64,000 nt of DNA, taken from the NCBI GenBank assembly GCA_001773215.1, contig MEWB01000001.1, positions 806,099 through 870,098 of the forward strand, in the 5' to 3' direction. The stretch's first letter is position 1; each line of letters begins with the position of its first letter. Below, piece after piece: positions 5,329 to 35,719 of the stretch. Made by a program: the position numbers and the translations under genes. This DNA comes from a candidate division WWE3 bacterium RIFOXYC1_FULL_40_10. Its GTDB lineage: Bacteria > Patescibacteriota > WWE3 > UBA101185 > UBA10185. Below the pieces are notes generated by a model. That model was not told the origin of the DNA and searched no databases. It saw only the letters and a program-made list of their open reading frames with translations.

Positions 5329-5346
5329 ACTATAGTTTCTAAAAAG

Positions 5347-10008: not shown

Positions 10009-10013
10009 AACGA

Positions 10014-10043
10014 GGCTCCGCCTTCGGCGGAGCCCTTTTCTTG
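10014..10043 (+). terminator. Rho-independent terminator after proS
   Basis: GGCTCCGCC-TTCG-GGCGGAGCC stem-loop followed by CTTTTCTT. Confidence 0.75.
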
Positions 10044-10069
10044 TGTCAACACAAAAACTCTAGAGAAAC

Positions 10070-10423: not shown

Positions 10424-10470
10424 AAATTATTTCTTACTTGCCACCTCCCTCGTAGAGTAACCAAATATAT

Positions 10471-10794
10471 CTAAAATCCAACACCACCAAATAACGAGTT
10501 AATTATAACTCTTAGAATAACAACCGACAACAGAATGAAAAGCAGGCCCAAAAGTGCCGATGTCAAATTCTCCGAAGCAGCCTTTGTACTGTTTGGCGAA
10601 CCCTGACTCACCATGAAATCGTATCCTGACTTTACAACCATAGCCACACCGATAAAAATGCCGGCAGGATACAGAATTTTTGCCACAGCACCTATTAAAC
10701 CCTCGATAGATATATCCCTAACCTCCGGAGCCTCTTGGGCAAAAACTAGGAGATTTAGAAGTAGTAGTTCGGTAACAAATATTAATCTCTTCAC
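10471..10794 (-). CDS. Pilin-like small two-helix membrane protein with signal peptide; paralog of 20849..21301
   Basis: Signal peptide MKRLIFVTELLLLNLLVFA, two hydrophobic helices separated by SQGSPNSTKAASE loop. Confidence 0.4.
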   Translation of the reverse strand: MKRLIFVTELLLLNLLVFAQEAPEVRDISIEGLIGAVAKILYPAGIFIGVAMVVKSGYDFMVSQGSPNSTKAASENLTSALLGLLFILLSVVILRVIINSLFGGVGF

Positions 10795-10862
10795 CGTATA
10801 ATATTCTCAAAAAAGTCCTGATATGGCAAACATAACATGATAAAATAAGAAATACACCTGCT

Positions 10863-12647
10863 ATGAAAATTCGTACAACACTAATTATCTCTCTCATGTT
10901 TCTTTTTGGTGCAATAACGCCAACTTACGTTTTGGCAGATGACGAATGTAAGAAAATCGAGGATTTAGATAAGCGCGCCGAGTGTTACGAAGCAAAAATA
11001 GACAAAAAGGAAAGTGAATACAATTCAACTACAAAACAACTGGACGAGATTAGAACGCAAAAAGATAGTATTAATCAAAAAATTCAGGCACTTTCGTCGG
11101 AGCTCAATGTAACTCAGGGACAAATAGACGAAATCGACTCCGAGGTAGATGCCGTTCAGGCCGAATTGGAGATTATCAACGGCAAGATTTTGGATCGCCA
11201 GCAAAAACTGGGAGATAAAATAAATTTAAGAAACCGTATCATAAGAAGCTATTTTATAAAAAGAGTCGAAAGTGAAATTACCCTGTTTTTAATGAATAAC
11301 GGTTTTGAAAATGCCTCGTTTAACTACGCTTTTAGCAAGGCCGCAAATAATGAGACAAAGAAACTAATAGAAGGTTTAAATTTTGAAATAAGCAATTTCG
11401 AAGCCGATAAGGCTGAATCTCTGGAACTTAAGAATGACTTGGAAAATAGTTTAGCAAGCCTGGCCAAGTTAAGAGCTGATTTAGCCACTAAAAAGAACCA
11501 ACAACAAGAAGAATTTAAGGAAACTGTAGCAGACGAGACTAAAACAATTAATAAATTATCAAATCTCCAAAATGAAATTGACGAATTATCGGCTAAACAA
11601 CAGGATATCTTGAAACAAAAGTATGGGGATGAGTATGGATCAGTGGGAGATTTTGAATCTCCAACAGCTTCAACACCAAGCCCACCCTTTAAACCTGCAT
11701 TTGCGGCATTCAGTTACGGTGCGTATACACACTACAAAGGCATGAGCCAATACGGAGCTAAAGGACGAGCTGACAAAGGAGATGACTACAAGGAAATTTT
11801 GAAATTCTACTATAAAGTGGATGCTAAGGAAAAAGACGACTTTCCCAGCAAATTGTGTGTTGAAGGATACGGTGACCTAAGCTTCTCCAAATACCTCTAC
11901 GGCATAGCCGAAATGCCAAGCGACTGGCCAGATGAGGCCTTAAAGGCCCAGGCTATAGCGGCTCGTTCTTATGCGTACCGTTACTACAAAGCCGGAAAGT
12001 GTATTTGTACAACTCAAAGCTGCCAAGTTTATTCCAAGAGCAAAAGCGACAACCCACCTTCAAAATGGAAAAGCGCTGTTGACGATACTGAAGGTATCAT
12101 TTTGGACAACGACATAGTTGCCTATTATTCATCAACAACCGGTGGCTACATTGATAATGTGGGATGGGATACGGAATGCGGTAGCTCTTCTTGTTGGCCA
12201 AGCAAAGCCTATGAAAAGAGTTCTCCCTGGTTTTACAAGGCATGGTATACAAAAAGCTATAACAACAGTGACTCCTGTGGAAGAGGGCACCCTTGGCTTT
12301 CGGAAAAAGAAATGGCGGATATTTTAAATGCGTATGTGGTTTGGAACAAAGGCAACAATAGTGATAGAGACCACATTTCTCCTGTAACAACAAATTGTTG
12401 GGGGGGAGATCCCTACTCACTTGATGAGATGGCCGATAAGGCTGGGGATTATGGAACCAAATACACTAAAGTAACTTCAATAGATGTTGAAGTAAGTAAC
12501 GGGGGATACACTTCAAATGTTACTTTAAGAACCGATAATGGAACTGTTTCAGTTAACGGCGAGACATTTAAAACTGTTTTTAACTTAAGAGCTCCCGGAT
12601 ATTTATCAATAAAAAGCAAGCTTTTCGACATGGAAAAACGCGAATAA
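10863..12647 (+). CDS. Secreted coiled-coil protein with C-terminal SpoIID/LytB-type peptidoglycan-remodelling domain
   Basis: Signal peptide; ~250-aa coiled-coil; KYLYGIAEMPSDWPDEALKAQAIAARSYAYRYY ... SSTTGGYIDNVGW matches the SpoIID/LytB domain signature. Confidence 0.65.
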   Translation: MKIRTTLIISLMFLFGAITPTYVLADDECKKIEDLDKRAECYEAKIDKKESEYNSTTKQLDEIRTQKDSINQKIQALSSELNVTQGQIDEIDSEVDAVQAELEIINGKILDRQQKLGDKINLRNRIIRSYFIKRVESEITLFLMNNGFENASFNYAFSKAANNETKKLIEGLNFEISNFEADKAESLELKNDLENSLASLAKLRADLATKKNQQQEEFKETVADETKTINKLSNLQNEIDELSAKQQDILKQKYGDEYGSVGDFESPTASTPSPPFKPAFAAFSYGAYTHYKGMSQYGAKGRADKGDDYKEILKFYYKVDAKEKDDFPSKLCVEGYGDLSFSKYLYGIAEMPSDWPDEALKAQAIAARSYAYRYYKAGKCICTTQSCQVYSKSKSDNPPSKWKSAVDDTEGIILDNDIVAYYSSTTGGYIDNVGWDTECGSSSCWPSKAYEKSSPWFYKAWYTKSYNNSDSCGRGHPWLSEKEMADILNAYVVWNKGNNSDRDHISPVTTNCWGGDPYSLDEMADKAGDYGTKYTKVTSIDVEVSNGGYTSNVTLRTDNGTVSVNGETFKTVFNLRAPGYLSIKSKLFDMEKRE

Positions 12648-12701
12648 TCCTGACAATACAAGTTAGAAGTTTTAATAACAAAACGCAAATTGCTTTATCA
12701 T

Positions 12702-12710
12702 TGTGGATAA
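12702..12710. promoter_or_regulatory. Perfect DnaA box (TGTGGATAA, reverse orientation) upstream of dnaA
   Basis: Exact 9-mer in the dnaA promoter region. Confidence 0.5.
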
Positions 12711-12759
12711 CTTAGTTACCATTTTAGCTACTGCCTAAAATTTTCTACCAAAACTAGCA

Positions 12760-14157
12760 ATGACCAACCAAACAGCTCAAAATTTAGAGGAACTGTGGGC
12801 TTCTATACTGGGGGAAGCTCAGCTTAATATTGCTCCTGCCATATTTAACTCCTTTGTGTCACGCACGAGCCTGGATTCAATTGTGGATAATAGAGCCATT
12901 GTTGCCTGTTCCGACTCAATGGTTAAAAGCAACGTAGAAAAAAAGGCAAAACAAGAGCTTCTTGCTGCTCTAAACAAACGCTCCCAGAAAAAACTTGACC
13001 TTGAGTTAATCATTAAAAAAGTTAAGGCTAAAACTCTCGATACAGGACCTGTTGGGCCTCTATTCACTCCACCCAGGGACGAGGAAATAGTAGTTAAAGA
13101 AAAGCAACTTCAAGCGGGGTTAACTCCAAAATATACTTTTGAAAATTACATTTTAGGAGGGCACAACAATTTGGCGCATGCTATTGCTGTGGCAGTGGCA
13201 ACCAGGCCGGGGGAGCAATACAATCCAGTATTCTTTCACTCGGGAGTAGGTCTGGGAAAAACCCATCTTTTACAAGCAATAGGGAATAATATTCTTAGAA
13301 ACCACCCTGCCACAAAGATTATTTATACAACAGGGGAAACTTTCACAAACGAGTTAATCGATGCAATACAAAGCGGAAAGGCAGGTAAAAAGTCGAAATA
13401 TACTACAAACGAGTTTCGAAACAGGTACCGTCACGCTGATGTTTTTTTAATAGACGATGTTCAATTTATTATTGGAAAAGACGCTACTCAAGAGGAACTG
13501 TTCCACACGTTTAACTCCTTATACATGTCGGGAAAGCAGATCGTTATAACTTCGGATCGTCCTCCAAGCGAGTTCAAAAATTTGGCGTCTCGCATAACTT
13601 CCCGCTTTGCCATGGGAATAATTGCCGATATCCAAAAACCCGGATTCGAGGAACGTGTTGCAATACTACGAGCGCGGCGAGATTTCTTAGGGGAAGACAT
13701 TTCCGACGAAATAATTAGTTATATTGCTCAAAACATTAGTTCAAACATTAGAGAACTCGAGGGTGCTTATATGCAAGTTTCTGTGAAGGCTCATTCCAAT
13801 AACATGCAACCAACTGTAACCATGGCTGCGGAAGCTTTGGGACAAAGTTATAGAGAGACAAAGAAACCTACAGTAAATATCAATGAGGTATTAAAGGCTG
13901 TGTGCAATTATTATTCGGTAAATATTCCGGATATCAAAGGCCCAAGAAGACATAAAGAAATAGTTATTCCCCGCCAAGTTGCGATGTATCTTATGAAAGA
14001 GTTTACAGAAACACCTTACATTGCAATCGGGGATTTACTAGGGGGAAGGGATCATACAACAATAATGCACGGCGCTGAAAAAATACATCAAAAAGTAACT
14101 GAAAAAGGAAAAATCTATACCGATGTTGCTAACATCAAACAAACTTTGGGCTATTAA
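12760..14157 (+). CDS. dnaA: Chromosomal replication initiator protein DnaA
   Basis: AAA+ Walker A GVGLGKTHLLQAIGN, YTFENYILGGHNNLAHAIA, C-terminal DNA-binding domain. Confidence 0.9.
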   Translation: MTNQTAQNLEELWASILGEAQLNIAPAIFNSFVSRTSLDSIVDNRAIVACSDSMVKSNVEKKAKQELLAALNKRSQKKLDLELIIKKVKAKTLDTGPVGPLFTPPRDEEIVVKEKQLQAGLTPKYTFENYILGGHNNLAHAIAVAVATRPGEQYNPVFFHSGVGLGKTHLLQAIGNNILRNHPATKIIYTTGETFTNELIDAIQSGKAGKKSKYTTNEFRNRYRHADVFLIDDVQFIIGKDATQEELFHTFNSLYMSGKQIVITSDRPPSEFKNLASRITSRFAMGIIADIQKPGFEERVAILRARRDFLGEDISDEIISYIAQNISSNIRELEGAYMQVSVKAHSNNMQPTVTMAAEALGQSYRETKKPTVNINEVLKAVCNYYSVNIPDIKGPRRHKEIVIPRQVAMYLMKEFTETPYIAIGDLLGGRDHTTIMHGAEKIHQKVTEKGKIYTDVANIKQTLGY

Positions 14158-20505: not shown

Positions 20506-20847
20506 ATGAACCAACCTTCTGGTCCTTTTGATATGCTTAAAGACGTTGTCGGAGAATCGGAAATACCCGCGCCCGGTCATATTACTTCAGTTTGGGATAT
20601 CGCCGCGGCAATCGCAAATTTTATGACTCTTATGGCTGCCGGATTGGCAATCGCCGGATTGGCTTATGCCTTTGTACAGTATGCGACCAGTCAGGGAGAT
20701 CCTAAAGCTGTGGATAGGGCTCAAAAGGCTGTTACAGGGTCTGTGGTGGCCTTCGTTGTCACTTTTTTGCTGTGGTCTATCCGAAGAATAATAATTGGTA
20801 CCTTAACGCAAGAAGGAGTATATATCGGAAATGATCCGGGGATTTAA
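20506..20847 (+). CDS. Pilin-like small two-helix membrane protein (TrbC/VirB2-like topology) with ~35-aa leader
   Basis: Two hydrophobic helices separated by ATSQGDPKAVDRAQKAVTG; paralog of 10070..10423. Confidence 0.4.
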   Translation: MNQPSGPFDMLKDVVGESEIPAPGHITSVWDIAAAIANFMTLMAAGLAIAGLAYAFVQYATSQGDPKAVDRAQKAVTGSVVAFVVTFLLWSIRRIIIGTLTQEGVYIGNDPGI

Positions 20848-20848
20848 T

Positions 20849-21301
20849 ATGAAGAACATAATAACTTTTTTAGTAACCATAGCTTTTATTTCAACCCTAA
20901 CGGGTTCGTATGCTCAGGCAACTTGGAGAGATTATTGTGAGTTGGAAGCAACTTCCCAAGACCCTCCTCCAGAGGCTATTATATGCCCGATAGGTAAACT
21001 TCTTACTATTGGAGTATATGCTGTGGGGGCAGTTTTTGTAGCTGTTATGGCTTTTGGCGCTTGGAAAATGTCGATGGCTTTGGGAGATGCCCGTGCTTTG
21101 GAGGGGGCTAAGATGACCTGGACTTATGCAGTAATGGGCCTTTTTATTGTATTGGCCTTTTTTGGGTCTTTTTCTATGATATCAGGCATGCTTGGAATTC
21201 GAAGTGATACCTTTATTGCCACTCCGGAAGCTTTGGTAGATAAAATGGCAGAAGGCTTGTCTAATCTTCTGGAAGTAGCTCAAGTAACAACCACTCCGTA
21301 A
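20849..21301 (+). CDS. Pilin-like two-helix membrane protein with signal peptide; paralog of 10471..10794
   Basis: Start refined to MKNIITFLVTIAFISTL (signal peptide) directly after the upstream stop; two helices separated by ALGDARALEGAK. Confidence 0.4.
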   Translation: MKNIITFLVTIAFISTLTGSYAQATWRDYCELEATSQDPPPEAIICPIGKLLTIGVYAVGAVFVAVMAFGAWKMSMALGDARALEGAKMTWTYAVMGLFIVLAFFGSFSMISGMLGIRSDTFIATPEALVDKMAEGLSNLLEVAQVTTTP

Positions 21302-21309: not shown

Positions 21310-21765
21310 TTATTTATAAAGTCCTCCCTCAAGAAATTCGGTTTCAATCGTGGGCATAATATCGATTTTATTTACACTAATTTCGTAGCTTTTAGTTTTG
21401 GTTAAGGTCACTTTATATGTGTTTTTTCCTACAGGCACGTATTCGGGAGCCACATAAACTACAATTGTTGAGTTTCTATCGATCCTACTGCTAAATTTTA
21501 GAGGGGGCTCTATTGAGACACTTATGTCCTCGTCTTCGATATCTCTGTCTAAATAAAATTTCAAAATGAGAGCGGCTCCCCTATCAAGTTCTATATCTTC
21601 TAATATTTCAGGAGAGGTCTTTAGTACAACAGGGTCTCTTATATTTACCTGTTTATAATTTGGTGTGATGTTTTCTCCTCCAGGGTTTATAAGATTCCAA
21701 AAGTACCAAAATCCCCCGATGATTGCTGTCAATATTATTAGTCTTAATATATTTTTTTTATCCAT
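21310..21765 (-). CDS. Bitopic membrane protein: N-terminal TM helix plus ~110-aa beta-rich extracytoplasmic domain (VirB8-like topology, speculative)
   Basis: Start refined to MDKKNILRLIILTAIIGGFWYFW with AGGTAGGAAG SD; 5 nt downstream of the giant gene stop. Confidence 0.45.
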   Translation of the reverse strand: MDKKNILRLIILTAIIGGFWYFWNLINPGGENITPNYKQVNIRDPVVLKTSPEILEDIELDRGAALILKFYLDRDIEDEDISVSIEPPLKFSSRIDRNSTIVVYVAPEYVPVGKNTYKVTLTKTKSYEISVNKIDIMPTIETEFLEGGLYK

Positions 21766-21770
21766 ACTTC

Positions 21771-24700
21771 CTACCTTGATGGAGCGATGCAAACGTGTGA
21801 TTCAGGAACCACTTGATCTCCGTCTATTGTTAATTCTACATGAACATGGTCGTATATGGCGCCTGTGGGGTAGGGTGAAAGTACTGTACCTATTTGGTCC
21901 CCAGGTGAAAATGATCCTGATGGACATGAAACCAAATGGGATACCCCCATCTCATATTTTCCTTCATCACCGTCTCCTATAAAACCCGCCATAACACCGG
22001 CAGAGGCGCCTTTATACGTTAAATTCCAACATCTTGACGAATCCCATGTTGTTACGCCCCCAATAGAAGGCGCAATTGCTGTGTAGTCGGATGTGTTAGG
22101 GTGTACATCTACAGCATATCCCCAACCATCTCCAAGAGGGCTTTGATCAGAGCACCAGTTATTAGAGTTATAAGGGCCTTTAATTTTATCCGGCCACTGT
22201 GGTATAGAGTAGGAGCATTCGTAATTACATGAATCCCTGTCAACATGACCGCACCAATAATCATTTGATCCATGGGCGTACATATCTGCCTCATTTCCGG
22301 CATAGGAGTGTCCCCATCCGGCTCTAGTGTAATGCTCTAAAACGCAGGGGTAATCTCCGGTTTCTTCTTCCGCAGGGCAAACCGGATTTCCTGAATCATC
22401 TTGATCACATGCATCTCCTTTTTCAGTGTTCGGGCAACATTGGTCATTGCAGCAAATGCCTTCGCAGTCCTCTTCGCAGGAACCTTCCTCCGGAGGCTCA
22501 GCCACCTTACAGACCTTGTCAGGTGCACATGTGGCCTCCTCATCGCAGCATATTGGGTTGCTGGCACAGCTTTGTCCCGTTGGAATACACTTTTCTTTCA
22601 TTGGAGGATAAATGCTAAAAGTAGCGTGAGCTTCTCCTTGTACACTCGGTATTGGGGGGTCTTCCGATGTTCCCGGAATATCTATTGTGGCAGTCGCTAC
22701 TATTCTGGAATTCATTTTTCCTAGCGCTTTTTTTCCATTGTTTGCCGGCATTTTAATTGGCGTCTCCGAATTGGTTGCAAATGCCGACGTGCTAATGCCT
22801 CCTCCGTCTGTATACACAACGCTTACATCGCCATTCAGATCTATCTGTTCTACAACCAAAGTGTATCCTGCGGAACCCTTTATTCGGGTTAAATCGATTT
22901 TTGGTTCAACGACTAACTCATACCTAGCCTCAGTTCCCTCACTTGTATATGGTTCGGGGGGGTTAGTAATATCCACGCCGTTATGGGTTACTATCACGTC
23001 TAGTCGAACATCAGCTACTTGTGTGATTGAGCCGGTAGCTGCATCGAGTACGGAAGAGTCGGAGTTTGAGGCTAGTTGTTTGTTTGCATCCGCATACCGT
23101 ATTTCGTTAATTAAGACACCTTCTTGGTCTTCCGCTAAATTAGAAAACCATTTAGTAGGATCAAGCGGTGACAGTGCTGACCCTATAATAGTTTGAAGAA
23201 GAATCACAAACAACGCCATTGGAGCCATAATTAAAAGAGTTATATACGAAAGGGTTTTAATTATTTGTTGAATTTGTTTATCTACTGCTCTGAAAGCTTT
23301 TGTGAGGTCGCCTGTAGCGATACCCGAAATCAAATCCTTGCCAAACACAAGAGTTTTCTTAAAAAGTATTCGCAGGATCGGAACTAAAAATTTTTCTACC
23401 AGCGGAGCTAAAAAGGCCCCAATACCCCCGGTTAAAGCCCCCAATCCAAACTTTAACCCAAGCTTAAGCAAAAGCTTACTCAGCATGTTCTTAATTGCAG
23501 TTGATAATCCTCTAAATGCGGCACCGAAAACCTTGGTTAGACCCTCGAAACCCAATTCCTGTAAGCGGTCCTGCCACCCGGGGATCATCATTAGCCACTT
23601 TCCTATCGCGTACCTTTTCCCCCCAATTACTACGCCAAAATTTTTTATAGCCGTTTGAACCTGGTTAAGTTTTGACCAAACTCTCTGAAGGTGTCCTATA
23701 TATTTTGTTGTTATTTTGAAGGTATCCGGATTGGCATTCTCCCTTTTTAAGGCATAATAGAGAGCAAGCATAAAACCTTCGCTATCTAAATCCGCACCAT
23801 TAAACTTATTTAAGCCCCGTAAATAATCCTTAAATTCTTTCAGTTGCTTGTCAAAATATGCGCCGTCTTCAGCTGATAGTTTTATTCCCAAAGCTTGAAA
23901 TATAGCCAAGCGGGTAGCATTGTCTGAAAACTTGGCTTTTTCTGCCAACAAAGACGCCAAAAGCTTTGGATCCAAGTGCATCAAGTCCCCCATTAAGTGT
24001 GTAGCATTAGATGTTCTCGCAGCATCTCCGCTTCCGACGACAAATTCGAAAATTTTATCTCCAAGCATTCCGTTCGCGGTGATATTTACGCCATTTACAA
24101 GCCTTAAAGCTTCTTGCCTATTCTTTTCAAGTTTTGCATAAATTGTAGAGTTTAATCTTTTTAGGTAATCTTCTTCCGATTCGTTTTTTAGCTTTTCTAA
24201 TACCAACTTTGATCTTACGCGTTTATAATATTCGGCATCCTCTTCCCATCGCCACTCTTTTGTCAACGGATCCTTTACCCTGACCTTAGCCAAGGTTCCC
24301 TTTGCGGCCTTATTTCGGTAACTTAAATTTATTCCATGCGATAAATCCGCGTTTCCCAGCTTAACATCGAATTTGTACTGGTGCCCAGAGCCCAAATTAT
24401 CAGTGTTTTCCCTTTCGTCTACTATCAGGCCAAAATAGTGAGTTCTTTTAAGGGTTCTATCAATTATTGTTCCTGTAGTGACCTTGTCGACCCATGGTTT
24501 AAGAACTTTATTGTATAGATGTCTCTGTACCAGTTTTCCCTCGGCCAAATCGTCTATTAACTGTTCACAATCGCGCTGTATACGCTCTGTTTGCTCTCCC
24601 CTAAGTAAAGCCATAACCTTTTTGGATCTGGTTCCATCGGCTTCTTGCAAAATATCCGCCATTCCTCTCGCACCCCTTTTTGAGTAAATTAGGCCGTTTT

Positions 24701-26348
24701 CTATTCTTAAGTCAAACTCTCTTTTTAGATTAGGCCCCAAGAATTCATCCCCGCCTTCAAGTTTTCTTCCGCGGTAGGTTACGTTATCGATCAAAGCGTG
24801 TTGAACTCTCGCTGCGCTTCTTACATCGGCGCCTTTTATGGAAGCCCCAATGTCTTGGTATACTCCTGTTACTTTCTTTTTGTTGTCCGAAACTATACTT
24901 CCGGCAGAATCCCTCTCTACAAACCGGGTTAAGTTACTTCTTACACCATCTACTTTTTTGTCTAGTTTCTCAACATATCCTTCCAGATTTGACAAGTAAC
25001 CATTATGCTTATTGGTTACAGCCCTTAGTTCGGCTATTCTGGCTCTCACATCGGCTGTTCTTTCTTGGACTTGTTCCAGAGTTCCCGATCCGCATCTCAA
25101 AATCTTATCCCCCTCTATCTTGACGCCAATTTCCTGATCGGTGACAGTTGCCCACTTTGTAGGATCGGGTGCTCTCCCCTCAGCTTTAGCTTTATTAAGT
25201 TCTGCTTTTTGTTTCTCCCCTAATACTCGTATTCTGATGTTTTCAATATTCTGCAGTGTTTTGTCTCTAAGCTCATCCGACATTACTTCATCAGGATTCA
25301 CAATCCAGTCGTTTTTGGTTTTTAGTAAGTTTGCGATGGGAGCGGAGGCGTCTGCTTGGCTATAGATACCCAAAAATCCCTTTTGTAGTCCATGTTCCCC
25401 TCTTGCCTCTTCAAGAGCGGCCAGGGATTTTGATAGTGCCAATTCTTTTTGAAATACGGCAAATTGAGTTTGATCATGGGCACTTGAACCTGCTAATACA
25501 CTCGAGAGTTCTTGTTCTATAGCGTCAAAAGAAGCTACTCTAACTTTGTCCTGTGCCATTCCTCTGGTAAATTTTACTTTCTCAAAGGCTTCAAGATTTA
25601 TCATCTTGGCGGCCACATCTCCAAAGGCGGCATCCAGTTCCAAATCCCTGCTTCTTTGGATCGGATCACTGGACTTTCCCAAATACAAAGGGTTAGCTGT
25701 TCCGGCAGGTTCTCCAAGAGCCCTGCCTCCCTTCGAGCGGGCTTCCGCGATTGCTCTTTCAATTCCAGACATCGAGTGCTCTTTGCCTTCGTCATCTACC
25801 CAAGAAACGTATTCGTTTTTTAGTAGGGTTTCTTCCCACGCATCCTTGCTGTATTTGGTGGCAAAATCTCCAAAGTTGCTTTTAGCTAAATCTTTCACAT
25901 CCACACCTGTTCCTGCTTTCACCCAGTCGTTAAGGGTGTTCTTTACCTGAGTCTTGAAATTTTCACTAACAGTTCCTTTGCCGGAAACCCAGTCCAGTGG
26001 ATTTAACGAAAGGTTCACACCAAATGCTCCCGGAAGTTCACCGTAGTCATAATCGTAGAATTCACCAATATCCGAATTTACAGGTTTAATAGTTGCTTTG
26101 AGTTTGTTTTTAAAGTCATTAATTATTTCATCCCTAATCTGCCCGGGAAGTCCCTCTATGTCAAAAGCCATATCATCTATTGCTTGTGTAAAATCTGCAA
26201 AAGGGTACTCGATAGGTTTTACATAATCTCTGGGTTGAAACGGTTTTGGTTCTTTTTCTCCTTGGTAATAACCGGGGTAAAAGGGACTCATACCGGTTTT
26301 ATCGGCGGGTTCCGGTATATATCCTGCATAAAAGGGGTTTACTGCCAT
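21771..26348 (-). CDS. Giant 1,525-aa membrane protein: ~1,000-aa N-terminal coiled-coil-rich cytoplasmic region, TM cluster, extracellular Cys-rich module and C-terminal M23/LytM-like peptidase domain
   Basis: No signal peptide; hydrophobic helices about 1,000-1,100 aa in; Cys-rich CCDEEATC...SCEEDCEGICCNDQCC; C-terminal GYAVDV...GVSHL...GDQIGTVLSPYPTGAIYDHVHVEL resembles the M23 HxxxD/HxH region. Confidence 0.55.
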   Translation of the reverse strand: MAVNPFYAGYIPEPADKTGMSPFYPGYYQGEKEPKPFQPRDYVKPIEYPFADFTQAIDDMAFDIEGLPGQIRDEIINDFKNKLKATIKPVNSDIGEFYDYDYGELPGAFGVNLSLNPLDWVSGKGTVSENFKTQVKNTLNDWVKAGTGVDVKDLAKSNFGDFATKYSKDAWEETLLKNEYVSWVDDEGKEHSMSGIERAIAEARSKGGRALGEPAGTANPLYLGKSSDPIQRSRDLELDAAFGDVAAKMINLEAFEKVKFTRGMAQDKVRVASFDAIEQELSSVLAGSSAHDQTQFAVFQKELALSKSLAALEEARGEHGLQKGFLGIYSQADASAPIANLLKTKNDWIVNPDEVMSDELRDKTLQNIENIRIRVLGEKQKAELNKAKAEGRAPDPTKWATVTDQEIGVKIEGDKILRCGSGTLEQVQERTADVRARIAELRAVTNKHNGYLSNLEGYVEKLDKKVDGVRSNLTRFVERDSAGSIVSDNKKKVTGVYQDIGASIKGADVRSAARVQHALIDNVTYRGRKLEGGDEFLGPNLKREFDLRIENGLIYSKRGARGMADILQEADGTRSKKVMALLRGEQTERIQRDCEQLIDDLAEGKLVQRHLYNKVLKPWVDKVTTGTIIDRTLKRTHYFGLIVDERENTDNLGSGHQYKFDVKLGNADLSHGINLSYRNKAAKGTLAKVRVKDPLTKEWRWEEDAEYYKRVRSKLVLEKLKNESEEDYLKRLNSTIYAKLEKNRQEALRLVNGVNITANGMLGDKIFEFVVGSGDAARTSNATHLMGDLMHLDPKLLASLLAEKAKFSDNATRLAIFQALGIKLSAEDGAYFDKQLKEFKDYLRGLNKFNGADLDSEGFMLALYYALKRENANPDTFKITTKYIGHLQRVWSKLNQVQTAIKNFGVVIGGKRYAIGKWLMMIPGWQDRLQELGFEGLTKVFGAAFRGLSTAIKNMLSKLLLKLGLKFGLGALTGGIGAFLAPLVEKFLVPILRILFKKTLVFGKDLISGIATGDLTKAFRAVDKQIQQIIKTLSYITLLIMAPMALFVILLQTIIGSALSPLDPTKWFSNLAEDQEGVLINEIRYADANKQLASNSDSSVLDAATGSITQVADVRLDVIVTHNGVDITNPPEPYTSEGTEARYELVVEPKIDLTRIKGSAGYTLVVEQIDLNGDVSVVYTDGGGISTSAFATNSETPIKMPANNGKKALGKMNSRIVATATIDIPGTSEDPPIPSVQGEAHATFSIYPPMKEKCIPTGQSCASNPICCDEEATCAPDKVCKVAEPPEEGSCEEDCEGICCNDQCCPNTEKGDACDQDDSGNPVCPAEEETGDYPCVLEHYTRAGWGHSYAGNEADMYAHGSNDYWCGHVDRDSCNYECSYSIPQWPDKIKGPYNSNNWCSDQSPLGDGWGYAVDVHPNTSDYTAIAPSIGGVTTWDSSRCWNLTYKGASAGVMAGFIGDGDEGKYEMGVSHLVSCPSGSFSPGDQIGTVLSPYPTGAIYDHVHVELTIDGDQVVPESHVCIAPSR

Positions 26349-26405: not shown

Positions 26406-27734
26406 ATGAGTTTTTTTAGAAGACTGCCTTACATTTTTAGCTTGTTATTAATACTAGCTCCTGTGTTGTCGACCCCGGTACTCGCTGCAAAATGCGACTT
26501 GCCTCAATGCGAACTAGAAAAAAAATCATCAAGATTTAGAATTTCCAAGTTTGGTATTAACCTACCAAACATGATAGGACAGGCAATCGAATCAATTCCC
26601 GAGGTACTTTTCGATGCTATATCCGGCAGGACTCTTACCGAGGTTGTTCAGTGTGAGGATAAACTCAGGGCCAAGGTAGGACTAACTGGAGATGTAGGGT
26701 GGGATCCTGCCTTTGGTTCTTCAGAGGAGGTTTGTAAAGCAGTGGCAGGAGAGATAGCGTTTTTCGGTGGTTTTGGGACAAGCCCTATTCCCGGAAGTGC
26801 CCTAGGCATGGCATATGGTTTAGAGCATGGTTTAAAATCCACTCCCCCTCCGGTTAACCTTGCTTATTTTTGGAATCGCACCATAGAGGACCTTCCGATA
26901 GCTAACAAGGCATTAGCGGCCGATGTGCAGTACAATTCACCTCTCCTAGATGTTTTTTACTCGTTATGGCAATTATCCCGAAATGTATCCCTGGCTCTTA
27001 TGTCGGTAATATTGCTTGTAATAGGCATAATGATCATTTTACGAAAAAAAGTGAACCAGCAGGCTGTTGTTACAATTCAGTATGCCATTCCAAGGATAGT
27101 AGTGTCATTTATATTAATACTGTTTAGCTATCCCATAGGTGGTATTATGGCAAGTTTAGGGTGGAATTTGTTTTCCAATGCATGGAGGATAGTATTCGAG
27201 TTTATGGGGGATAATATCTCCGCCCCTGTTGATGCGACAGGGAAAATTATGGGTTTTTCGGGGGCTTTTTCCCTCCTTGCCATTGTGGTATCTGGCGTTT
27301 TGTTCTTTAGCGGAGCAGGAGTGGTCTTGCTTACGTTTGCTATAGGATTACTAATAGTTCTTATTCTGATGTTTGTGTATCTTAGCGTTAAAGCATTTCT
27401 AATCTATTTAAAACTCATCATGTCGATAATGTCTGCACCTATAGAGTTTGTTATAGCCGCAATACCAGGCAGTGAAACCAGAATATCCGCTTGGTTCAAA
27501 CGTATGGCCATCTATGTACTTACTCTGTTTGGGATGGGGGCAATGGTTCCTATAGGAATTCTGGTTAGTTTCAAACTGCTGGAAGGTTCTGTAAACGCCA
27601 ATCAGCTGGGGTGGGGCTACCTAATAGGCATGTTCGGCCCTGTGTTTGCTATTCTTTACTGCTTTGGTGCTGCAATTAGAATGGAAACAACAATAACTAA
27701 GTTTATCGATCCTGACTCACTAAAGAAGAGATAG
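26406..27734 (+). CDS. Polytopic membrane protein with signal peptide, ~180-aa extracytoplasmic N-domain and at least 6 TM helices (VirB6/TrbL-like topology, inferred)
   Basis: Signal peptide ending VLAAKC; Cys-containing N-domain; dense TM helices in the C-terminal 250 aa. Confidence 0.4.
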   Translation: MSFFRRLPYIFSLLLILAPVLSTPVLAAKCDLPQCELEKKSSRFRISKFGINLPNMIGQAIESIPEVLFDAISGRTLTEVVQCEDKLRAKVGLTGDVGWDPAFGSSEEVCKAVAGEIAFFGGFGTSPIPGSALGMAYGLEHGLKSTPPPVNLAYFWNRTIEDLPIANKALAADVQYNSPLLDVFYSLWQLSRNVSLALMSVILLVIGIMIILRKKVNQQAVVTIQYAIPRIVVSFILILFSYPIGGIMASLGWNLFSNAWRIVFEFMGDNISAPVDATGKIMGFSGAFSLLAIVVSGVLFFSGAGVVLLTFAIGLLIVLILMFVYLSVKAFLIYLKLIMSIMSAPIEFVIAAIPGSETRISAWFKRMAIYVLTLFGMGAMVPIGILVSFKLLEGSVNANQLGWGYLIGMFGPVFAILYCFGAAIRMETTITKFIDPDSLKKR

Positions 27735-27737
27735 AGC

Positions 27738-30700
27738 TTATTTACAAGCGTTTAGTATCTCGCTTATTTTGCCCCCTGCTGCGTAAACAGCATAATCCGG
27801 GTTGCCGCTATTGTATTCACCCTCAAGGTATACCGGCCAATAATTAAGTGATTTCATGGCTCCTGCCGTTATTTCCCAAGAACCGGGACCCATTCCCATC
27901 CAACTATCGTAATTGCAGGTGTTAGGTGCATCTCCCATCACCTGCTCACTAGCGTATCTTTCTGCAAAGTTTCTGATACCTGCCGCTGTAACATATGCAG
28001 AGTCTAGGAAGTTGCATCTGTGTGCCGTTTCTCCTCTTCCCATAGAAACCGTGTTTAATGCATCATAGGCTGTTCCGAAGGTATTTCCGGGGTCATTGCG
28101 CGTTTTAATATTTTCAAAGGCAGGCCCTGTTAGATAAAAAGGACCTTGTTCATTATAGTTTAGATCGTTACAGTAATAAGTTTTTCCGTTGCGTGTTTTC
28201 ACGTATTTGTCTAAGCTCGACCACCAGGGAGTTGTTCCAACCTGAATCGAGCTTAAACTCCAAATCAGATTTTGCTCTTCTCTACTGATATTGCTGGCAA
28301 GGCTGATACGGCTTTCCGGTTTTGATATGTCTCCCTGTTTCCAGTAGTCCGCAAAGTCGTTCAACCCTCCGGTTATCTTCATCTGTGCCAATAACAGCGA
28401 TGCAGGAACCTGGAAAGCGTTTGCTGCCCCTTGAAGAACTTTTACAAAAGTTGGGGAAAACGTGTAGGTAGCAGGATCTACACCTAATGCCGTTTTGCAG
28501 GCTGCTGTGTTTAAAGCTGAAAGTCCACATCCCGGAACGAGTTTGTCCAGATCAGCCTCTGCAGGATTAGGGACATCTTTAAGTGAGCAATCCCATCCAT
28601 AATCAAGAGTGTTGGTAGAACAAACATTTGGAGTAGGATATTCGATATCAGGTGCGTATCTTCCGTCTGTCGCGTATTCCTGCATTTCCTGGTATTTAAC
28701 TCCTGATCCGGGGGCCTTATCCTTTTCAACACCAATTGGTGTAGTTCTCTGCTCTGTTCCTGCTACATCTTCCGCGGTAGACATTGCAGGTATATTAAAT
28801 CCCCCTGCAACCATAGTTACGTCGATGGGCATACAATAACTTGGGTCGTCACTCACCGGGCAGTACTCACCTACTTCTCCAATAGATCTCGGGTTTTTCA
28901 ATGCCAGGTACTCGGCTCCAAGCATGGACTCTGTGTAAGGGTAGTCATCCGGTTCTTCTTCTGTCTCTGTAGCGTCCGATGCCTGCTCATTTTCTGCATT
29001 TTGTCTTTGTGGCACAATATCCATAGTAGCCATCATTTCGGCCGAGCCATCACACTCTTTAAATTTGCCCTGTGCCCCAAACGGCCCTGCTACTTGAACG
29101 GTGCAATAAACTTCATCTGATACATACCAGGCGTTAGGACACTGATACTGTTTCCCGGGTTCCGAGTTACCGTTCTTATCTTCGCACTCGCCTGTTGCAC
29201 AGCATTCATTTGTCCCTGCCAAGCAGTTTTGCGGCGAGGGGGTATCACCTTTACAGGTGCTGGCGCATATATTGCCGGGATCTCCACTTCCGCAGCCACT
29301 TTCACAGCAAACACTCACGTTTTCGTTACCCTCACCATTTACCGGACAACACGTGTGATCACATTCCTTATCGCAACTTTTTCCCTCCGGAGCTTTATCT
29401 ATTAGAGTTGTTTTTTGTTTCCAGGCACAATACACCCATTCGAATTTATTGCAGCTGCTTTCGTTTACACCGTCCCCTGGCTTTTTACAGTCAACCGGTC
29501 TGCAAGTCCTGCTTATAGGTACATTGGGTCCCATTTTCTCTCCATTGATTGTAACTTCTCTTCCTATGTTTATGTCCTCCGTGAAAGGCAGTTTTTTATC
29601 ATCCTCATCAGAGCCCGCGTCCTCATCCCCGCAGTATTCATTCATTGGTATTACCGTCCCAAACTTTTCTGCCACTTTTGAGCTATGGTCTTCTCCTCTA
29701 GGTTTGTTGCTGTTATCTCCGAGCCCATTTCCCCAAGGATAACAGTAATTTTCTCCCCAAGGGGATACGACCCTATCATCTTTAATTTGTGTTTTAAAGG
29801 TAGAGTCATTGGCGGGTAACGGAAAGAATTTAGCAAAACTTTCCTCAGTTACAGCTTCATAAACACTTCCCCCATCCTCAGTTTCTATGTGATTGTAGTT
29901 GACAATAAAGTTATCCATTGGTTCAGGACGTAACTCAGCAATTGTCCCGCCTCTGTCGAAGAAGTTCTTGTATTTGGCTGTTTTACCTTGTAACAAAAGG
30001 AGAAACTGTTCAATAACGGTAAATCCGCTTACCTTTATTTCTCCACTACCTGCAGAAGCATTCATTACTGCATCATACAGATGCGTTCCTGCGCTTTTAG
30101 CCTTTTCTAGTAAGTCCCCATCCAGTTCAAGAAGCTTTTCAGATCTATTAATTGCTGCGGTGGTGTATCTGATATCCGAGGTTCCCATCGAGGCGGGGTC
30201 AGTTGGAGGTGCAGGGGTATTCGCTTGAGGATTTTGCAAATAGTGATGTTCGTCCAGTTGTACTACACCTGTTTCATCATCTATATATTCATTTGATCTA
30301 TAAAATTCCAATTCGTTATCCTTACTTATAATTATCGAATTAATCTTATCCTTTAAATTGTTAGCATTAGAAAGCATGCAGTAGGTTTGAATTTCGCCTC
30401 CAAACTTAACCAGGGGATAATCTTCTCTATATAGTAAGTCTGTGAATGCGGGGTCGTCTTTTACACCAAAGCCCATGGTGGTGGTGTCGGTAAACTTGGG
30501 ATCTATCGGATAGCTTTCCTGGGATACAGTAAGCCCTTCTGCGTCGGAGATATCTTTTATATTTGATGAAATTTGTGCCCCAAAAGTTACCGAGCCCTTT
30601 CCTTCTTCTGGGTTTGAAGCGGGGTCGTTTTTGTAGCCACCAAAAACAATAGCATTGCCGCTTTTTAAGGGATCTTGGCTTTCCATTAGGGCACCTAGCG

Positions 30701-32300
30701 GATCGCTCTTTGATGGATCTGCGGGGTTTGCTTGATAAGAAGACCCTACAATGCCGTAGGTGCTGGATGAAAGTGCGGTGCCTGCCTTGGCGCTGTAATA
30801 CATTAGCATTTCAGGGCTCCAATAGTCGCTTCCCAAAGAGCACTCGCCGCCGCCGCAATCCGGATCCCACGGTTTTTTAATTTGGCTAATTTTCACTTCT
30901 TCGTCAGTATCAGGCTTAACGCAAATCACAGGGTCATACCCGGTTTCAACGTAATATTTATCCCAAATATCTTCAAAAGTGTTATAGCTGCTTAAGGACA
31001 CCCCGGGTCCTGTTGTAGTCATTTCGCTTCGATATTCTTCAGTGTCCTTTGTGGGGTCAGGAAGGTCCTCCGGATTAACTCCGTAATTTATTCCAAAAGG
31101 ATCAGTGCACTTTTTGTATGTTTCACAACTTATTCTTGGGAAAGTGTCGGGATCTAGGAACTTTCTTATCTTTATTCCCAAGCCCTCATTTTCCTGTAAA
31201 CACATTCCAAAATGTGTTTGATTAAAGGCATAAGTAGCATTTGGATTTTGGGCATATCCAACCAATTCTAATCTAAAAGTCATTTCCCGTGGAAATAGCA
31301 TAACCGCCTTAGCAGGTAATGCCGGGTAGAATGACTCAATTACATAAGGTTTCGCCTTATTTTCACCTTCTATGCCTCTAGTGTAAGTGTCCAGCTCGTA
31401 TTTATCAGGGTCGCCGGTATCACACATGTTTTTCCACCAAATATCTTGACTTCGCCTGTCATATGTTAATGTTTTGCAGTCTTTTGACCAAAAGGAACCC
31501 TGATGGACAGATCCGGAGTTTGCTGCCCCCGCTATTACACTTGGCACTTTAGCAAAAATGTCCTCATAGTTATTTGGCGTAAACCTTTGGTCAGCCCTTT
31601 TTACGCCGCCTACAAAAGTGGTCTCTATTACTGTTTGATTCTTTTTAGCTTCTGATATTTCAACTGTAGACGGCACCTTTCCGGTTCCTTGGTTTCCCAT
31701 GTCGCAGTTAATATGAACGTTACCCTTTAGGTCCATTATGCGAAATATTGATGGGGCAGGAGGAGGTGTGGCTGGGTCCCGGACAGCTATATCATTCGGG
31801 CATCTGGAGTAAATACTAAGATACGGATAGCTTTGAGTGGAATCCAAGCGGATGATGTCATCTAAATCATAAGTGCCGTCTTCCCGCTCGCAAGCCGTAA
31901 CTAAGTATCTAATTTGCTGGCCGCCGACTACTCTCATTGGGCAGTAAAAATAACCGTCTTCGTTCGAATAAGTAGAACAATAAGGGTGAATGATGTTGCC
32001 GTCTAGCTTACATGTAGGCGAGGAAGGATCACATTCGTATATAAACACAGATACGTTTGGGACACCCTTATGTGACATTTGCATATTCCCTGACGCGGCA
32101 GACATAGCCTCGTCTTCTTCAAAAGCTTCTTCAGGATCGTGGCTTCGAATAATCCCGCATACAGAATTTTCATTTCCATTTGCCGGTTTAGGGCACCTTG
32201 AGCCTTCAATAAATTGGGAATCGTACATATTTTCGGCTAGGGTTTGTGTTCCAAACGCAAACAACAGGAATAATGTAACTAAAACCGCTTTATATTTCAT
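27738..32300 (-). CDS. Giant 1,520-aa secreted Cys-rich protein (signal peptide, no TM) with a C-terminal globular domain of uncertain type, possibly lysozyme/transglycosylase-like
   Basis: Signal peptide MKYKAVLVTLFLLFAFGTQTLA; central module SCDKECDHTCCPVNGEGNENVSVCCESGCG homologous to the module in the 1,525-aa neighbour; C-terminal 'VPASLLLAQMKITGGLN' weakly SLT-like but lacks the catalytic Glu. Confidence 0.5.
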   Translation of the reverse strand: MKYKAVLVTLFLLFAFGTQTLAENMYDSQFIEGSRCPKPANGNENSVCGIIRSHDPEEAFEEDEAMSAASGNMQMSHKGVPNVSVFIYECDPSSPTCKLDGNIIHPYCSTYSNEDGYFYCPMRVVGGQQIRYLVTACEREDGTYDLDDIIRLDSTQSYPYLSIYSRCPNDIAVRDPATPPPAPSIFRIMDLKGNVHINCDMGNQGTGKVPSTVEISEAKKNQTVIETTFVGGVKRADQRFTPNNYEDIFAKVPSVIAGAANSGSVHQGSFWSKDCKTLTYDRRSQDIWWKNMCDTGDPDKYELDTYTRGIEGENKAKPYVIESFYPALPAKAVMLFPREMTFRLELVGYAQNPNATYAFNQTHFGMCLQENEGLGIKIRKFLDPDTFPRISCETYKKCTDPFGINYGVNPEDLPDPTKDTEEYRSEMTTTGPGVSLSSYNTFEDIWDKYYVETGYDPVICVKPDTDEEVKISQIKKPWDPDCGGGECSLGSDYWSPEMLMYYSAKAGTALSSSTYGIVGSSYQANPADPSKSDPLGALMESQDPLKSGNAIVFGGYKNDPASNPEEGKGSVTFGAQISSNIKDISDAEGLTVSQESYPIDPKFTDTTTMGFGVKDDPAFTDLLYREDYPLVKFGGEIQTYCMLSNANNLKDKINSIIISKDNELEFYRSNEYIDDETGVVQLDEHHYLQNPQANTPAPPTDPASMGTSDIRYTTAAINRSEKLLELDGDLLEKAKSAGTHLYDAVMNASAGSGEIKVSGFTVIEQFLLLLQGKTAKYKNFFDRGGTIAELRPEPMDNFIVNYNHIETEDGGSVYEAVTEESFAKFFPLPANDSTFKTQIKDDRVVSPWGENYCYPWGNGLGDNSNKPRGEDHSSKVAEKFGTVIPMNEYCGDEDAGSDEDDKKLPFTEDINIGREVTINGEKMGPNVPISRTCRPVDCKKPGDGVNESSCNKFEWVYCAWKQKTTLIDKAPEGKSCDKECDHTCCPVNGEGNENVSVCCESGCGSGDPGNICASTCKGDTPSPQNCLAGTNECCATGECEDKNGNSEPGKQYQCPNAWYVSDEVYCTVQVAGPFGAQGKFKECDGSAEMMATMDIVPQRQNAENEQASDATETEEEPDDYPYTESMLGAEYLALKNPRSIGEVGEYCPVSDDPSYCMPIDVTMVAGGFNIPAMSTAEDVAGTEQRTTPIGVEKDKAPGSGVKYQEMQEYATDGRYAPDIEYPTPNVCSTNTLDYGWDCSLKDVPNPAEADLDKLVPGCGLSALNTAACKTALGVDPATYTFSPTFVKVLQGAANAFQVPASLLLAQMKITGGLNDFADYWKQGDISKPESRISLASNISREEQNLIWSLSSIQVGTTPWWSSLDKYVKTRNGKTYYCNDLNYNEQGPFYLTGPAFENIKTRNDPGNTFGTAYDALNTVSMGRGETAHRCNFLDSAYVTAAGIRNFAERYASEQVMGDAPNTCNYDSWMGMGPGSWEITAGAMKSLNYWPVYLEGEYNSGNPDYAVYAAGGKISEILNACK

Positions 32301-32368: not shown

Positions 32369-32836
32369 ATGGCATTACTATTAGTAAAAAATAGAAAAGC
32401 ACTGTTCGACCACAGCCTTGTTGAAAAATACACGGCCGGTATTGTATTGGAAGGATACGAGGTTAAAGCGATAAAAGAAGGGAAAGCCAACTTCGAAGGA
32501 TCTTATGTGAGGATACTCGACGGAGAGCCTTTCGTTGTGAATATGTACATAGGAAAATACTCAGCCCAAAGCCAGCCTTTTGAGGAATTGAGAGCCAGGG
32601 AGAGTCGCAAATTGCTATTAAACGGCAAAGAAATTGAGGAAATATATAAAGAGTTAGATCAAAAAGGGAAAACCGCAGTTCCACTAGCCTTAATTTTAGA
32701 CAACAATCGAATTAAGCTTGAGTTTGCTATCGTTAAAGGGCGCAAGGACTATGAGAAAAAAGCAGTAGCTAAGGAAAAGCAGGTTTTAAAAGATTTAGAA
32801 AGAGAATCGAAAGAGGTACGCAAGCTGGTTTTTTGA
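32369..32836 (+). CDS. smpB: SsrA-binding protein SmpB
   Basis: KALFDHSLVEKYTAGIVLEGYEVKAIKEGKANFEGSYV conserved SmpB core. Confidence 0.85.
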   Translation: MALLLVKNRKALFDHSLVEKYTAGIVLEGYEVKAIKEGKANFEGSYVRILDGEPFVVNMYIGKYSAQSQPFEELRARESRKLLLNGKEIEEIYKELDQKGKTAVPLALILDNNRIKLEFAIVKGRKDYEKKAVAKEKQVLKDLERESKEVRKLVF

Positions 32837-33950: not shown

Positions 33951-35573
33951 CTACTTACCGGTGCTCACATCGACATTAATGTTTCCCTGTGTACACACGC
34001 TTGCGGGAACGGCCGTCCAATCTATAGTGATCAATCCGGCGGAGGCTAAAAGAATCAGCTCCTCGCAGGATACCCCGTCTTCCAAGTTCACCAAGGCTTT
34101 GATCATATTCAGGGTTTGCTCAAACTCCGCAGCTTGAGCCATTACCATCTGAAGTCTGGCTTCGGATGCAGCTTTTTCAGCCTCGGCAATCTTAATAGCG
34201 TCCTGCTGTTTTTGCAGGGCTAATTCAGATTCTGCCGCCGCAGTACGCAAAGCATCGTCATTAAAATTGCGGCTTCTGATGTTAACGTAGGTGATGATCA
34301 ACGGAATACCTTTTCCGTCGATACCCTCTTGGATTTTTTTCTGAGTCCTACTTTCACACTCAGCCTTTCCTTCGGGGCTTTCCAGTTGCTCCTGGTTCAT
34401 ACCAGAGCACACGGAACGCAGATTGTCGCGTGTTGGGCCCTCGACGTTGTCGATAACGGCTTTAATGAGATCTCCAAAATTTCTGAACATCTCAAGTTTC
34501 GCCGGACTGCCTTTTGGATCCAATACCCGCACTCCAACATCCACGTTGAATTCTGCTTGCCGATCACTGTCTGCAAAATTAATGCGGGTGATAACAGTTC
34601 CGCATTGAATAGGTGCCGATTGACATGCCGTATCGTAGTTTTCGTCGAACACTTTTGTATCAAGCGTTCTGTAACGAAGCTCCTCTAGGGTATAAATCTT
34701 TGTGAGGATAGGCACGGTATTAAAATGAGTGCCCGGGGATAGATACACCACGGTTCCGTCACTCTCGACGAAGATGCCGAATTGGCTAGACCCGACTTGT
34801 ACCGCTTTGTCCAGATTCCACCGGGATTTCATTTCCTCCATGTATACCCCAGGATTGGGAATCCGGAACTCATACTTGCCGTCATTGGTCATTCTCCAGG
34901 CGAGTTCATCGACTCCGACGACCAGGTAAGGTTCTACTTGCCAGTTCTTCATGAACTGATCAGGGTAGATGCCCGGAGCGTTAAGTATTTGAATAGTACC
35001 ATCGGTTTTCTGATTCCATGCCAGTTGTCCCTGCTCAATTTTTAATGCATGCTCTATTTCCCATCCTTCAATGGGAACTCGATAGCACTCTGTTTGGGCA
35101 ATTCGAACAATCATTTTGCCGGGTTCATTTTCTTTCGCCAAATACTCATATTGGTATGCGATTTGACCCGGTCTTAGGCACAAAGCATCTTTGATCAGTA
35201 ATTCGTCGTCCCCCTGGGGGATATTTTTGTATACCCTTGGGGGCAAATTGACAGGCTTGCCTTGGTAATGAATGACACCAATTTGGAAGGTGCCGACTTT
35301 AAGTCGATTCACCTGCTGGTATCCGGCAGTTTGCTTTGAGGAGGAAATATACTTAGCATCTCCCCAGATCTCAACAAATTTTGCCAGATCAGCATCATCC
35401 AAGGTTACTGGATCCCTGCCGTTCAAGAAAGTTTTCAGAGCCGCTACGCTTTCAATAGACTCGTAGCTATCCTGCACCTTCACGTAGAAGGTTTCCACTT
35501 TAGCGGTACAGGCCGCTAAAAGCATGTTAATCAATATCACAACCACAATAAAAAACCGTGCTTTGTTTTTCAT
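33951..35573 (-). CDS. Secreted lipoprotein, hypothetical (C-terminal Ala/Glu-rich helical segment)
   Basis: Start refined to MKNKARFFIVVVILINMLLAAC (lipobox) with AAGGAG SD 7 nt upstream. Confidence 0.5.
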   Translation of the reverse strand: MKNKARFFIVVVILINMLLAACTAKVETFYVKVQDSYESIESVAALKTFLNGRDPVTLDDADLAKFVEIWGDAKYISSSKQTAGYQQVNRLKVGTFQIGVIHYQGKPVNLPPRVYKNIPQGDDELLIKDALCLRPGQIAYQYEYLAKENEPGKMIVRIAQTECYRVPIEGWEIEHALKIEQGQLAWNQKTDGTIQILNAPGIYPDQFMKNWQVEPYLVVGVDELAWRMTNDGKYEFRIPNPGVYMEEMKSRWNLDKAVQVGSSQFGIFVESDGTVVYLSPGTHFNTVPILTKIYTLEELRYRTLDTKVFDENYDTACQSAPIQCGTVITRINFADSDRQAEFNVDVGVRVLDPKGSPAKLEMFRNFGDLIKAVIDNVEGPTRDNLRSVCSGMNQEQLESPEGKAECESRTQKKIQEGIDGKGIPLIITYVNIRSRNFNDDALRTAAAESELALQKQQDAIKIAEAEKAASEARLQMVMAQAAEFEQTLNMIKALVNLEDGVSCEELILLASAGLITIDWTAVPASVCTQGNINVDVSTGK

Positions 35574-35719
35574 TCGACTCTCCTTGTCGTAATAAAAGGA
35601 TAATCCTCTAAACAGAGGAATTTGGGCTATTTTACAGCATTCTGTGAGCCCAGTCAACCTATAGGGTTGAACTACCGCCTGATAAATGCTAGAATTCGAT
35701 CACTTTACAAAGGAGAGTT

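Follow-up and report, generated by a model that had tools for sequence, protein, structure and literature searches.

Cysteine-dense, probably disulfide-bonded spacer modules in two giant predicted envelope proteins of a candidate division WWE3 bacterium

Two giant proteins encoded close to each other in the genome of a candidate division WWE3 bacterium each carry a short, acidic stretch dense in cysteine, and the question that this locus raises is what these stretches are and whether they derive from one module. The window analyzed here is a 64-kb stretch of DNA from this uncultivated bacterium, which belongs to the Candidate Phyla Radiation (CPR)/Patescibacteria lineage; protein A (1525 aa; NCBI hypothetical protein A3K34_04510) is encoded at 21771-26348 and protein B (1520 aa) at 27738-32300, both on the minus strand. 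With a probability that we put at roughly 0.55, both are small spacer modules, probably braced by disulfide bonds, that lie in the exported portions of two WWE3 envelope proteins. A reading made from the sequence alone (the sequence-only reading) had quoted Cys-rich peptides from both giants, and translation of the open reading frames (ORFs) recovered them where that reading had placed them. In A, CCDEEATCAPDKVCK occupies aa 1267-1281 (nt 22506-22550) and SCEEDCEGICCNDQCCPNTEKGDACDQDD occupies aa 1290-1318 (nt 22395-22481), the quoted peptides together mapping to nt 22395-22550; in B, SCDKECDHTCC...STCKGD occupies aa 975-1019 (nt 29244-29378). A six-frame translation of the window showed that the two stretches have the two highest Cys densities within long ORFs, 10 and 8 in 40 aa, and that a density of 8 Cys per 40 aa also occurs in one 79-aa non-genic segment. 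The motif C-x2-[DE]-C-x3-CC was found in A and B only, and the back-translated pattern S-C-[DE]-[EK]-[DE]-C-[DE]-x2-CC matched the window at the A and B sites only, none being expected from 100 shuffles. The description of both giants as carrying a Cys-dense, acidic stretch therefore stands, together with a common 11-residue motif (SCEEDCEGICC in A, SCDKECDHTCC in B) and two common Cys frameworks, C-C-CC-CC-C-C and the knottin-like C-C-CC-C-C, both of which are also present in an ortholog of A on another locus, L015.

Protein A consists of a long N-terminal part, a hydrophobic anchor, a beta-rich region, a Cys-rich stalk and a C-terminal M23-fold domain. No signal peptide was found on the long N-terminal part. 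The putative membrane-anchor region (aa 976-1051; 23196-23423, minus strand), for which we infer the topology, matches a conserved GGxxAFLAPLxEK hairpin-like segment and the last transmembrane (TM) segment of the homologs P0002, P0007 and P0018. The Cys stretch itself (aa 1254-1324, 14 Cys) lies between the beta-rich region and the M23 domain and is built from two units. Unit 1 (CIPTGQSCASNPICCDEEATCAPDKVC; aa 1254-1280; 22509-22589, minus strand) has six Cys in the knottin-like spacing C-6-C-5-CC-5-C-5-C and aligns at every Cys with the second unit of the ortholog P0006/L015; unit 2 (CEEDCEGICCNDQCCPNTEKGDACDQDDSGNPVC; aa 1291-1324; 22377-22478, minus strand) has eight Cys spaced C-3-C-3-CC-3-CC-8-C-9-C and holds the motif flagged by the sequence-only reading. 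A has 2 Cys up to aa 975 and a further 22 beyond the last TM segment, of which the stalk contributes 14 and the M23 domain 8. Protein B begins with a signal-like hydrophobic segment, read from the sequence as a predicted signal peptide (MKYKAVLVTLFLLFAFGTQTLA; 32235-32300, minus strand), has no further hydrophobic segment and carries 50 Cys along its length, 20 of which fall in a Cys-dense region at aa 933-1083 (29052-29504, minus strand). Within this region an 8-Cys unit (CDKECDHTCCPVNGEGNENVSVCCESGCGSGDPGNIC; aa 976-1012; 29265-29375, minus strand; C-3-C-3-CC-12-CC-3-C-8-C) is followed by a knottin-like 6-Cys unit (aa 1016-1054; 29139-29255, minus strand; C-9-C-6-CC-4-C-14-C), so that B carries the two frameworks of A in reverse order over aa 976-1054. 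Downstream of them come an acidic linker and ~400 aa of uncharacterised C-terminal sequence.

Disulfide bonding of these units is suggested by the Cys counts, which are all even (2, 22, 14 and 8 in A; 50 and 20 in B), and by the CC doublets and spacings of 3-9 residues, which match known disulfide-rich frameworks. CC doublets are typical of such frameworks, and C-C-CC-C-C is the established knottin consensus. The concentration of Cys in exported parts is also consistent with export. Both modules had been described as extracellular, and it holds that both are Cys-dense and acidic and sit in predicted exported parts; the location as such is a prediction from hydrophobic segments and Cys distribution. 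MdbA-like thiol-disulfide oxidoreductases with an adjacent VKOR are overrepresented in CPR genomes (PMC6744442), and extracytoplasmic disulfide formation is therefore plausible in the group. In the arrangement that we favor, the 6-Cys knottin-like unit and the 8-Cys C-C-CC-CC-C-C unit would form the stalk of A between the anchor and beta-rich region and the M23-fold domain, A itself would most likely act as the cell-wall hydrolase of a type IV secretion system (T4SS) machine, cutting its own wall or that of a host, and the role of the stalk would be to keep the catalytic domain a set distance away from the membrane and to withstand proteolysis. B would use the same two frameworks, reversed, ahead of its acidic linker and C-terminal region. 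If the units are disulfide-bonded, this CPR lineage would be shown to equip its envelope machinery with disulfide-braced stalks; to our knowledge, few exported proteins of monoderm-type bacteria have dense Cys modules.

The comparison of A with its relatives showed what occupies the position of the Cys stretch elsewhere in the family. A homology search with the full-length protein retrieved A alone; an exhaustive HMMER search with aa 1060-1525 of A returned 27 distant cluster representatives, all of which matched through the last ~190 residues. Among 28 representatives, a Cys-rich stretch before the M23 domain was found in A and P0006 only. P0006 is a contig-edge fragment, and a metagenome scan located the full gene on L015 (82-3789), where it encodes 1235 aa and stands in the same gene order as in the window (TsaD, pilin, pilin, small ORF, A). 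At the same position as in A, the L015 protein carries a Cys stalk of ~150 aa with four units, in order C-6-C-6-CC-3-C-9-C, C-7-C-5-CC-5-C-4-C, a 4-Cys unit and C-4-C-4-CC-7-CC-4-C-6-C, the last of which directly precedes the M23 domain. The other 26 representatives have 0-4 Cys before this domain: in 9 the slot is occupied by a beta-sandwich-like "TYxITVTAKxGxLTNI" spacer, in 12 a short linker follows the membrane anchor, and the other 5 are fragments of the N-terminal part that show no spacer. Given these variable fillings (Cys stalk, beta-sandwich-like spacer or short linker), the position ahead of the M23 domain is a spacer slot of variable content, and the Cys stretch, a lineage-specific filling of it, is of limited general importance. 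The sequence-only reading had spoken of an exchangeable module, which is right in the loose sense that the slot in A's family is filled differently from lineage to lineage, but not in the sense of a recent exchange between A and B, as the comparison of their coding sequences given below indicates. Near-identical strain variants (P0030 and P0033) have modules without substitutions and are therefore uninformative on constraint.

The C-terminal domain of A (aa 1335-1525; 21774-22346, minus strand) is, judging from its modelled structure, a divergent M23/LytM-fold domain. An AlphaFold2 (AF2) model of the domain reached a predicted local distance difference test (pLDDT) score of ~90, and a Foldseek search of the PDB with this model returned 34 top matches that were all of the LytM fold, mostly M23 peptidases (LytM, lysostaphin, Csd, ShyA), with probabilities up to 1.00. 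The family profile searched against the PDB matched M23 or LytM-type chains only (best E 0.002). Pfam PF01551 gave no match to A, and the homolog P0015 scored 14.2 bits (E=0.051) against a cutoff of 28.7. Residues invariant in the family are H1359 (HGSNxYW), D1414 (YGYAxDV), H1471, H1501, H1503 and E1505, and the conserved Cys of the domain are 1335, 1378, 1399 and 1520. H1501-V-H1503 (HxH) and H1471, invariant in 28 sequences, align to the HLH/HL of PDB M23 chains. The domain has in common with peptidase family M23 (LytM, lysostaphin, Csd, ShyA) the fold, the HxH, the catalytic-position His (H1471) and the invariant Asp (D1414), but the HxxxD zinc-ligand motif is incomplete, with Gly at D-4 in place of His, and A's family has four conserved Cys. 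The family-specific HGSNxYW His (H1359), which lies 55 residues upstream of D1414, may replace the canonical HxxxD His. Because the canonical His is not at D-4 in A's family, catalytic competence of the domain is presumed.

Gene order and sequence similarity place A in a family of a Patescibacteria T4SS locus. Next to A, at lower window coordinates, lie two VirB2-like T4SS pilin genes (20506-21301, plus strand), of which 20506-20847 matches PF18895 and 20831-21301 is pilin-like by homology to genes of the related loci L003 and L006. A small conserved gene of 160 aa (21310-21792, minus strand) is downstream of A and has syntenic counterparts of 154-171 aa in loci L001-L006 and L015. Between A and B lies a gene for a polytopic membrane protein (26406-27734, plus strand), labeled VirB6-like from synteny and topology; it has no Pfam match and is 30-39% identical to the gene adjoining A homologs in other Patescibacteria. 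The A homologs P0007, P0018 and P0024 stand in a conserved cluster near dnaA/dnaN, with the order VirB2-like pilins (PF18895), small ORF, A homolog, ~450-aa polytopic protein, PrgI, TraC-like and VirB4-type ATPase, which corresponds to the Patescibacteria T4SS as described in PMC12102498. The full T4SS neighborhood is present in L002, L003 and L006, where the A homologs lie at 10001-13405, 10001-13279 and 5024-8305, respectively. The window has the pilins, small ORF, A and VirB6-like gene, L015 the pilins, small ORF and A; PrgI, TraC-like and VirB4 genes were not found anywhere in the 64-kb window.

A's family is without Pfam annotation, is membrane-anchored, ends in a divergent M23-fold domain and is conserved beside the VirB6-like and pilin genes of Patescibacteria T4SS loci, and this family is the more useful by-product of the analysis. 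According to PMC12102498, VirB1 profile searches are mostly without a match near virB4 in Patescibacteria genomes, VirB1 homologs with Peptidase_M23 are described, and peptidase and lysozyme genes beside virB4 are essential. A's family is a candidate for a cell-wall hydrolase mostly missed by VirB1 profiles in these loci. Like the hydrolases of monoderm T4SS (the VirB1 analogs PrgK, TraG of pIP501, TcpG and CwlT), A is membrane-anchored, has a peptidoglycan-hydrolase fold and sits inside a monoderm-type T4SS locus. It differs from them in having no SLT, CHAP or NlpC/P60 domain, in scoring below the Pfam M23 threshold, and in its ~1000-aa N-terminal part and Cys stalk, features not reported for those hydrolases in the portions of the literature available.

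Whether the modules of A and B share an ancestor is a separate matter. They had been called clearly homologous, and this is more than the alignments support, every statistic being marginal. Full-length BLASTP ranked the Cys regions as the top pair at 24.3 bits and E=0.11, found no shared similarity between A and B outside the Cys stretch, and gave E=0.016 over 23 residues when the modules alone were compared. Against composition-preserving shuffles, the Smith-Waterman score of 68 was reached by 58 of 2000 when both modules were shuffled, by 127 of 2000 when only B was shuffled, and by 190 of 2000 (p=0.095) when the Cys were held fixed and the other residues shuffled. The best ungapped 11-mer was equaled in 26 of 3000 shuffles (p=0.009) and, with Cys fixed, in 192 of 3000 (p=0.064); a shared run of three Cys spacings occurred in 234 of 3000 (p=0.078). 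Pairwise alignment thus did not demonstrate similarity beyond Cys composition (p=0.06-0.095 with Cys fixed), in a test of low power in which the stalk of A and that of its true syntenic ortholog (P0006/L015) likewise gave a non-significant result (z=1.6, p=0.07). In addition, the 33-nt stretches coding for the shared motif differ at many positions, and the motifs of A and B are therefore no recent copies of each other. As for the frameworks, shuffling produced the 8-Cys order in 4.5% of cases for the module of B and 7.4% for that of A, and the 6-Cys order in ~4.5% and 5.6%, respectively, and across the modules of A, B and L015 each framework was found in 4.5-13% of composition-matched shuffles, these frameworks having been defined post hoc, after the sequences had been seen.

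These results bear on the possibility that the stretches are independent low-complexity Cys/acidic linkers whose resemblance is due to convergence or chance and not to ancestry, an explanation to which we give a little less than even odds. It agrees with the BLASTP E value, with shuffle p values of 0.03-0.1 (0.06-0.095 with Cys fixed), with the unrelatedness of the remainder of A and B, and with the reversed unit order in B. It also agrees with a search of 596 Gb of species-representative genomes, in which the strict back-translated motif had 8 sites, none in CPR and most of them stop-interrupted; this is roughly the chance level from an estimated information content of ~38 bits for the pattern, and the exact motif is therefore no widespread signature. 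Set against this explanation are the best 11-mer, which is unusual for the composition (p=0.009), and the presence of both frameworks in A, B and L015, for which the product of the shuffle frequencies is ~0.002-0.013 if independence is assumed; this co-occurrence is suggestive, on the spacing patterns. Moreover, since the true orthologous stalks of A and L015/P0006 were equally non-significant (z=1.6), non-significance between A and B does not exclude homology. A shared origin of the two modules appears tentative on this evidence, with about one chance in three as a fitting measure of our confidence. The wider proposal that the two giants have a common function or origin did not hold up: beyond the stretch A and B share nothing, A belonging to the T4SS-locus family and B having no detectable relative. 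A second short resemblance was also seen, EEETGDYP of A (aa 1327-1334, ~22344-22367), directly before the M23 domain, and EEEPDDYP of B (aa 1114-1121, ~28935-28958), in the acidic linker after the Cys region.

Protein B appears to be a secreted orphan, as predicted from its sequence. No relative of B was found in genome contigs, viral contigs, phages or plasmids. UniRef names it "SCP domain-containing protein", but a CAP/SCP match was not reproduced with B as a whole or in segments in Pfam and in a PDB sequence search at E<=10. An SLT/lysozyme-like domain at its C-terminus, suspected from a look at the sequence, was not verified and was dropped. PrgI, TraC-like and VirB4 genes come after the VirB6-like gene in the related genomes (L002 4173-9928, L003 3996-9937); in the window (26406-32300) their place is taken by B, on the opposite strand. 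A diverged PrgI-like gene, considered for B from its position after the VirB6-like gene, was rejected: B lies on the opposite strand and showed no BLASTP or phmmer similarity to the PrgI-like proteins of L002, L003 and L006.

Two further explanations ascribe a specific activity to the Cys units. Under one of them, which we regard as improbable, they are metallothionein-like or Zn/Fe-cluster modules sequestering or sensing metal at the cell surface. CC and C-x3-C spacings occur in metallothioneins as well, the Cys and Asp/Glu contents are high, the B motif contains one His (CDHTCC), and the RIFOXY sample name assigns the organism to a set of subsurface aquifer samples; yet His is otherwise scarce, arrays of CxxC or CxC, as usually seen in Zn ribbons and metallothioneins, are missing, Cys counts are even, 21 of the 26 other family members have a beta-sandwich-like spacer or short linker in the same slot (the remaining 5 are fragments), and the predicted location is extracytoplasmic in an MdbA/VKOR-rich lineage (PMC6744442). 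Somewhat less improbable, and still unlikely, are knottin modules for binding or toxicity that would recognize a host envelope or inhibit host enzymes in an epibiotic lifestyle. The knottin-like spacing in A, B and L015 is in line with this, as are the rapid divergence and the change in unit number between orthologs (2 versus 4 units), both typical of interface modules, and Patescibacteria T4SS genes are essential for epibiotic growth in the one tested system according to PMC12102498. Opposed to it are the Pfam searches, which showed no relationship to known families of knottins, toxins or inhibitors, and the lack of a confident AF2 fold; moreover, neither a host nor a lifestyle is documented for this WWE3 organism.

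The closest analogies to the units are offered by knottins, by ladders of the granulin or framework-XI type and by the spacer domains of monoderm T4SS hydrolases. Unit 1 of A and two L015 units fall within the published loop-length consensus of the knottin (inhibitor cystine knot), and the B unit at aa 1016-1054 fits only when the first loop is relaxed to 9 residues; the units of A and B differ from knottins in having no sequence-family match or confident fold, and they are internal to giant bacterial envelope proteins, whereas knottins are free peptides. The 8-Cys units of A, B and L015 have exactly the order C-C-CC-CC-C-C of single and doubled Cys, in which they presumably resemble granulin-type ladders and I-superfamily conotoxin framework XI. 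A granulin has 12 Cys, including four CC doublets; the A and B units have 8 Cys with two doublets, different loop lengths and no match to granulin (PF00396) or any other Pfam family at E<=10. Nothing supports common descent of these units with granulins or framework XI.

The reading of the stretches as disulfide-braced spacers is itself opposed by several points. AF2 gave no confident fold for the stalk module of A (pLDDT 40-69, from a shallow alignment) or for aa 925-1520 of B (pLDDT 33, single sequence). Neither A, B nor the modules matched Pfam, NCBIfam or PHROGs, the modules having no Pfam match even at E<=10, and single-sequence searches of the PDB with A and B found no match. The window ORFs that were scanned contained no gene for Dsb, MdbA or VKOR. 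The frameworks were chosen with the sequences in view, the A/B similarity is marginal, and the canonical HxxxD His of M23 is not at D-4 in A's family. A bolder extension of the spacer reading would see in the 6-Cys and 8-Cys units an undescribed family of bacterial disulfide-rich mini-domains, which would shuffle in cassette form between giant WWE3/Patescibacteria envelope proteins and build rigid, fast-evolving stalks or host-recognition tips that would position T4SS-associated wall-degrading domains against a host; we hold this to be a long shot.

Other genes in the window were noted in passing. Resemblance to the VirB2-like pilins of L006 was also seen in two more small ORFs (10073-10426 and 10474-10806, both on the minus strand), which lie just upstream of a gene with a SpoIID domain (10863-12647), ~10 kb from the pilin pair beside A. 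With 11 Cys and a hydrophobic segment at its N-terminus, a 568-aa protein encoded at 33951-35657 (minus strand) has a match to PHROG 200 ('lipoprotein', E 2e-13) but to no Pfam family. A transfer-messenger RNA (tmRNA) gene is located at 40458-40848 (minus strand; 116.5 bits), ~8 kb from smpB (32369-32836, plus strand), and four tRNA genes are found at 42081, 46937, 47470 and 53641.

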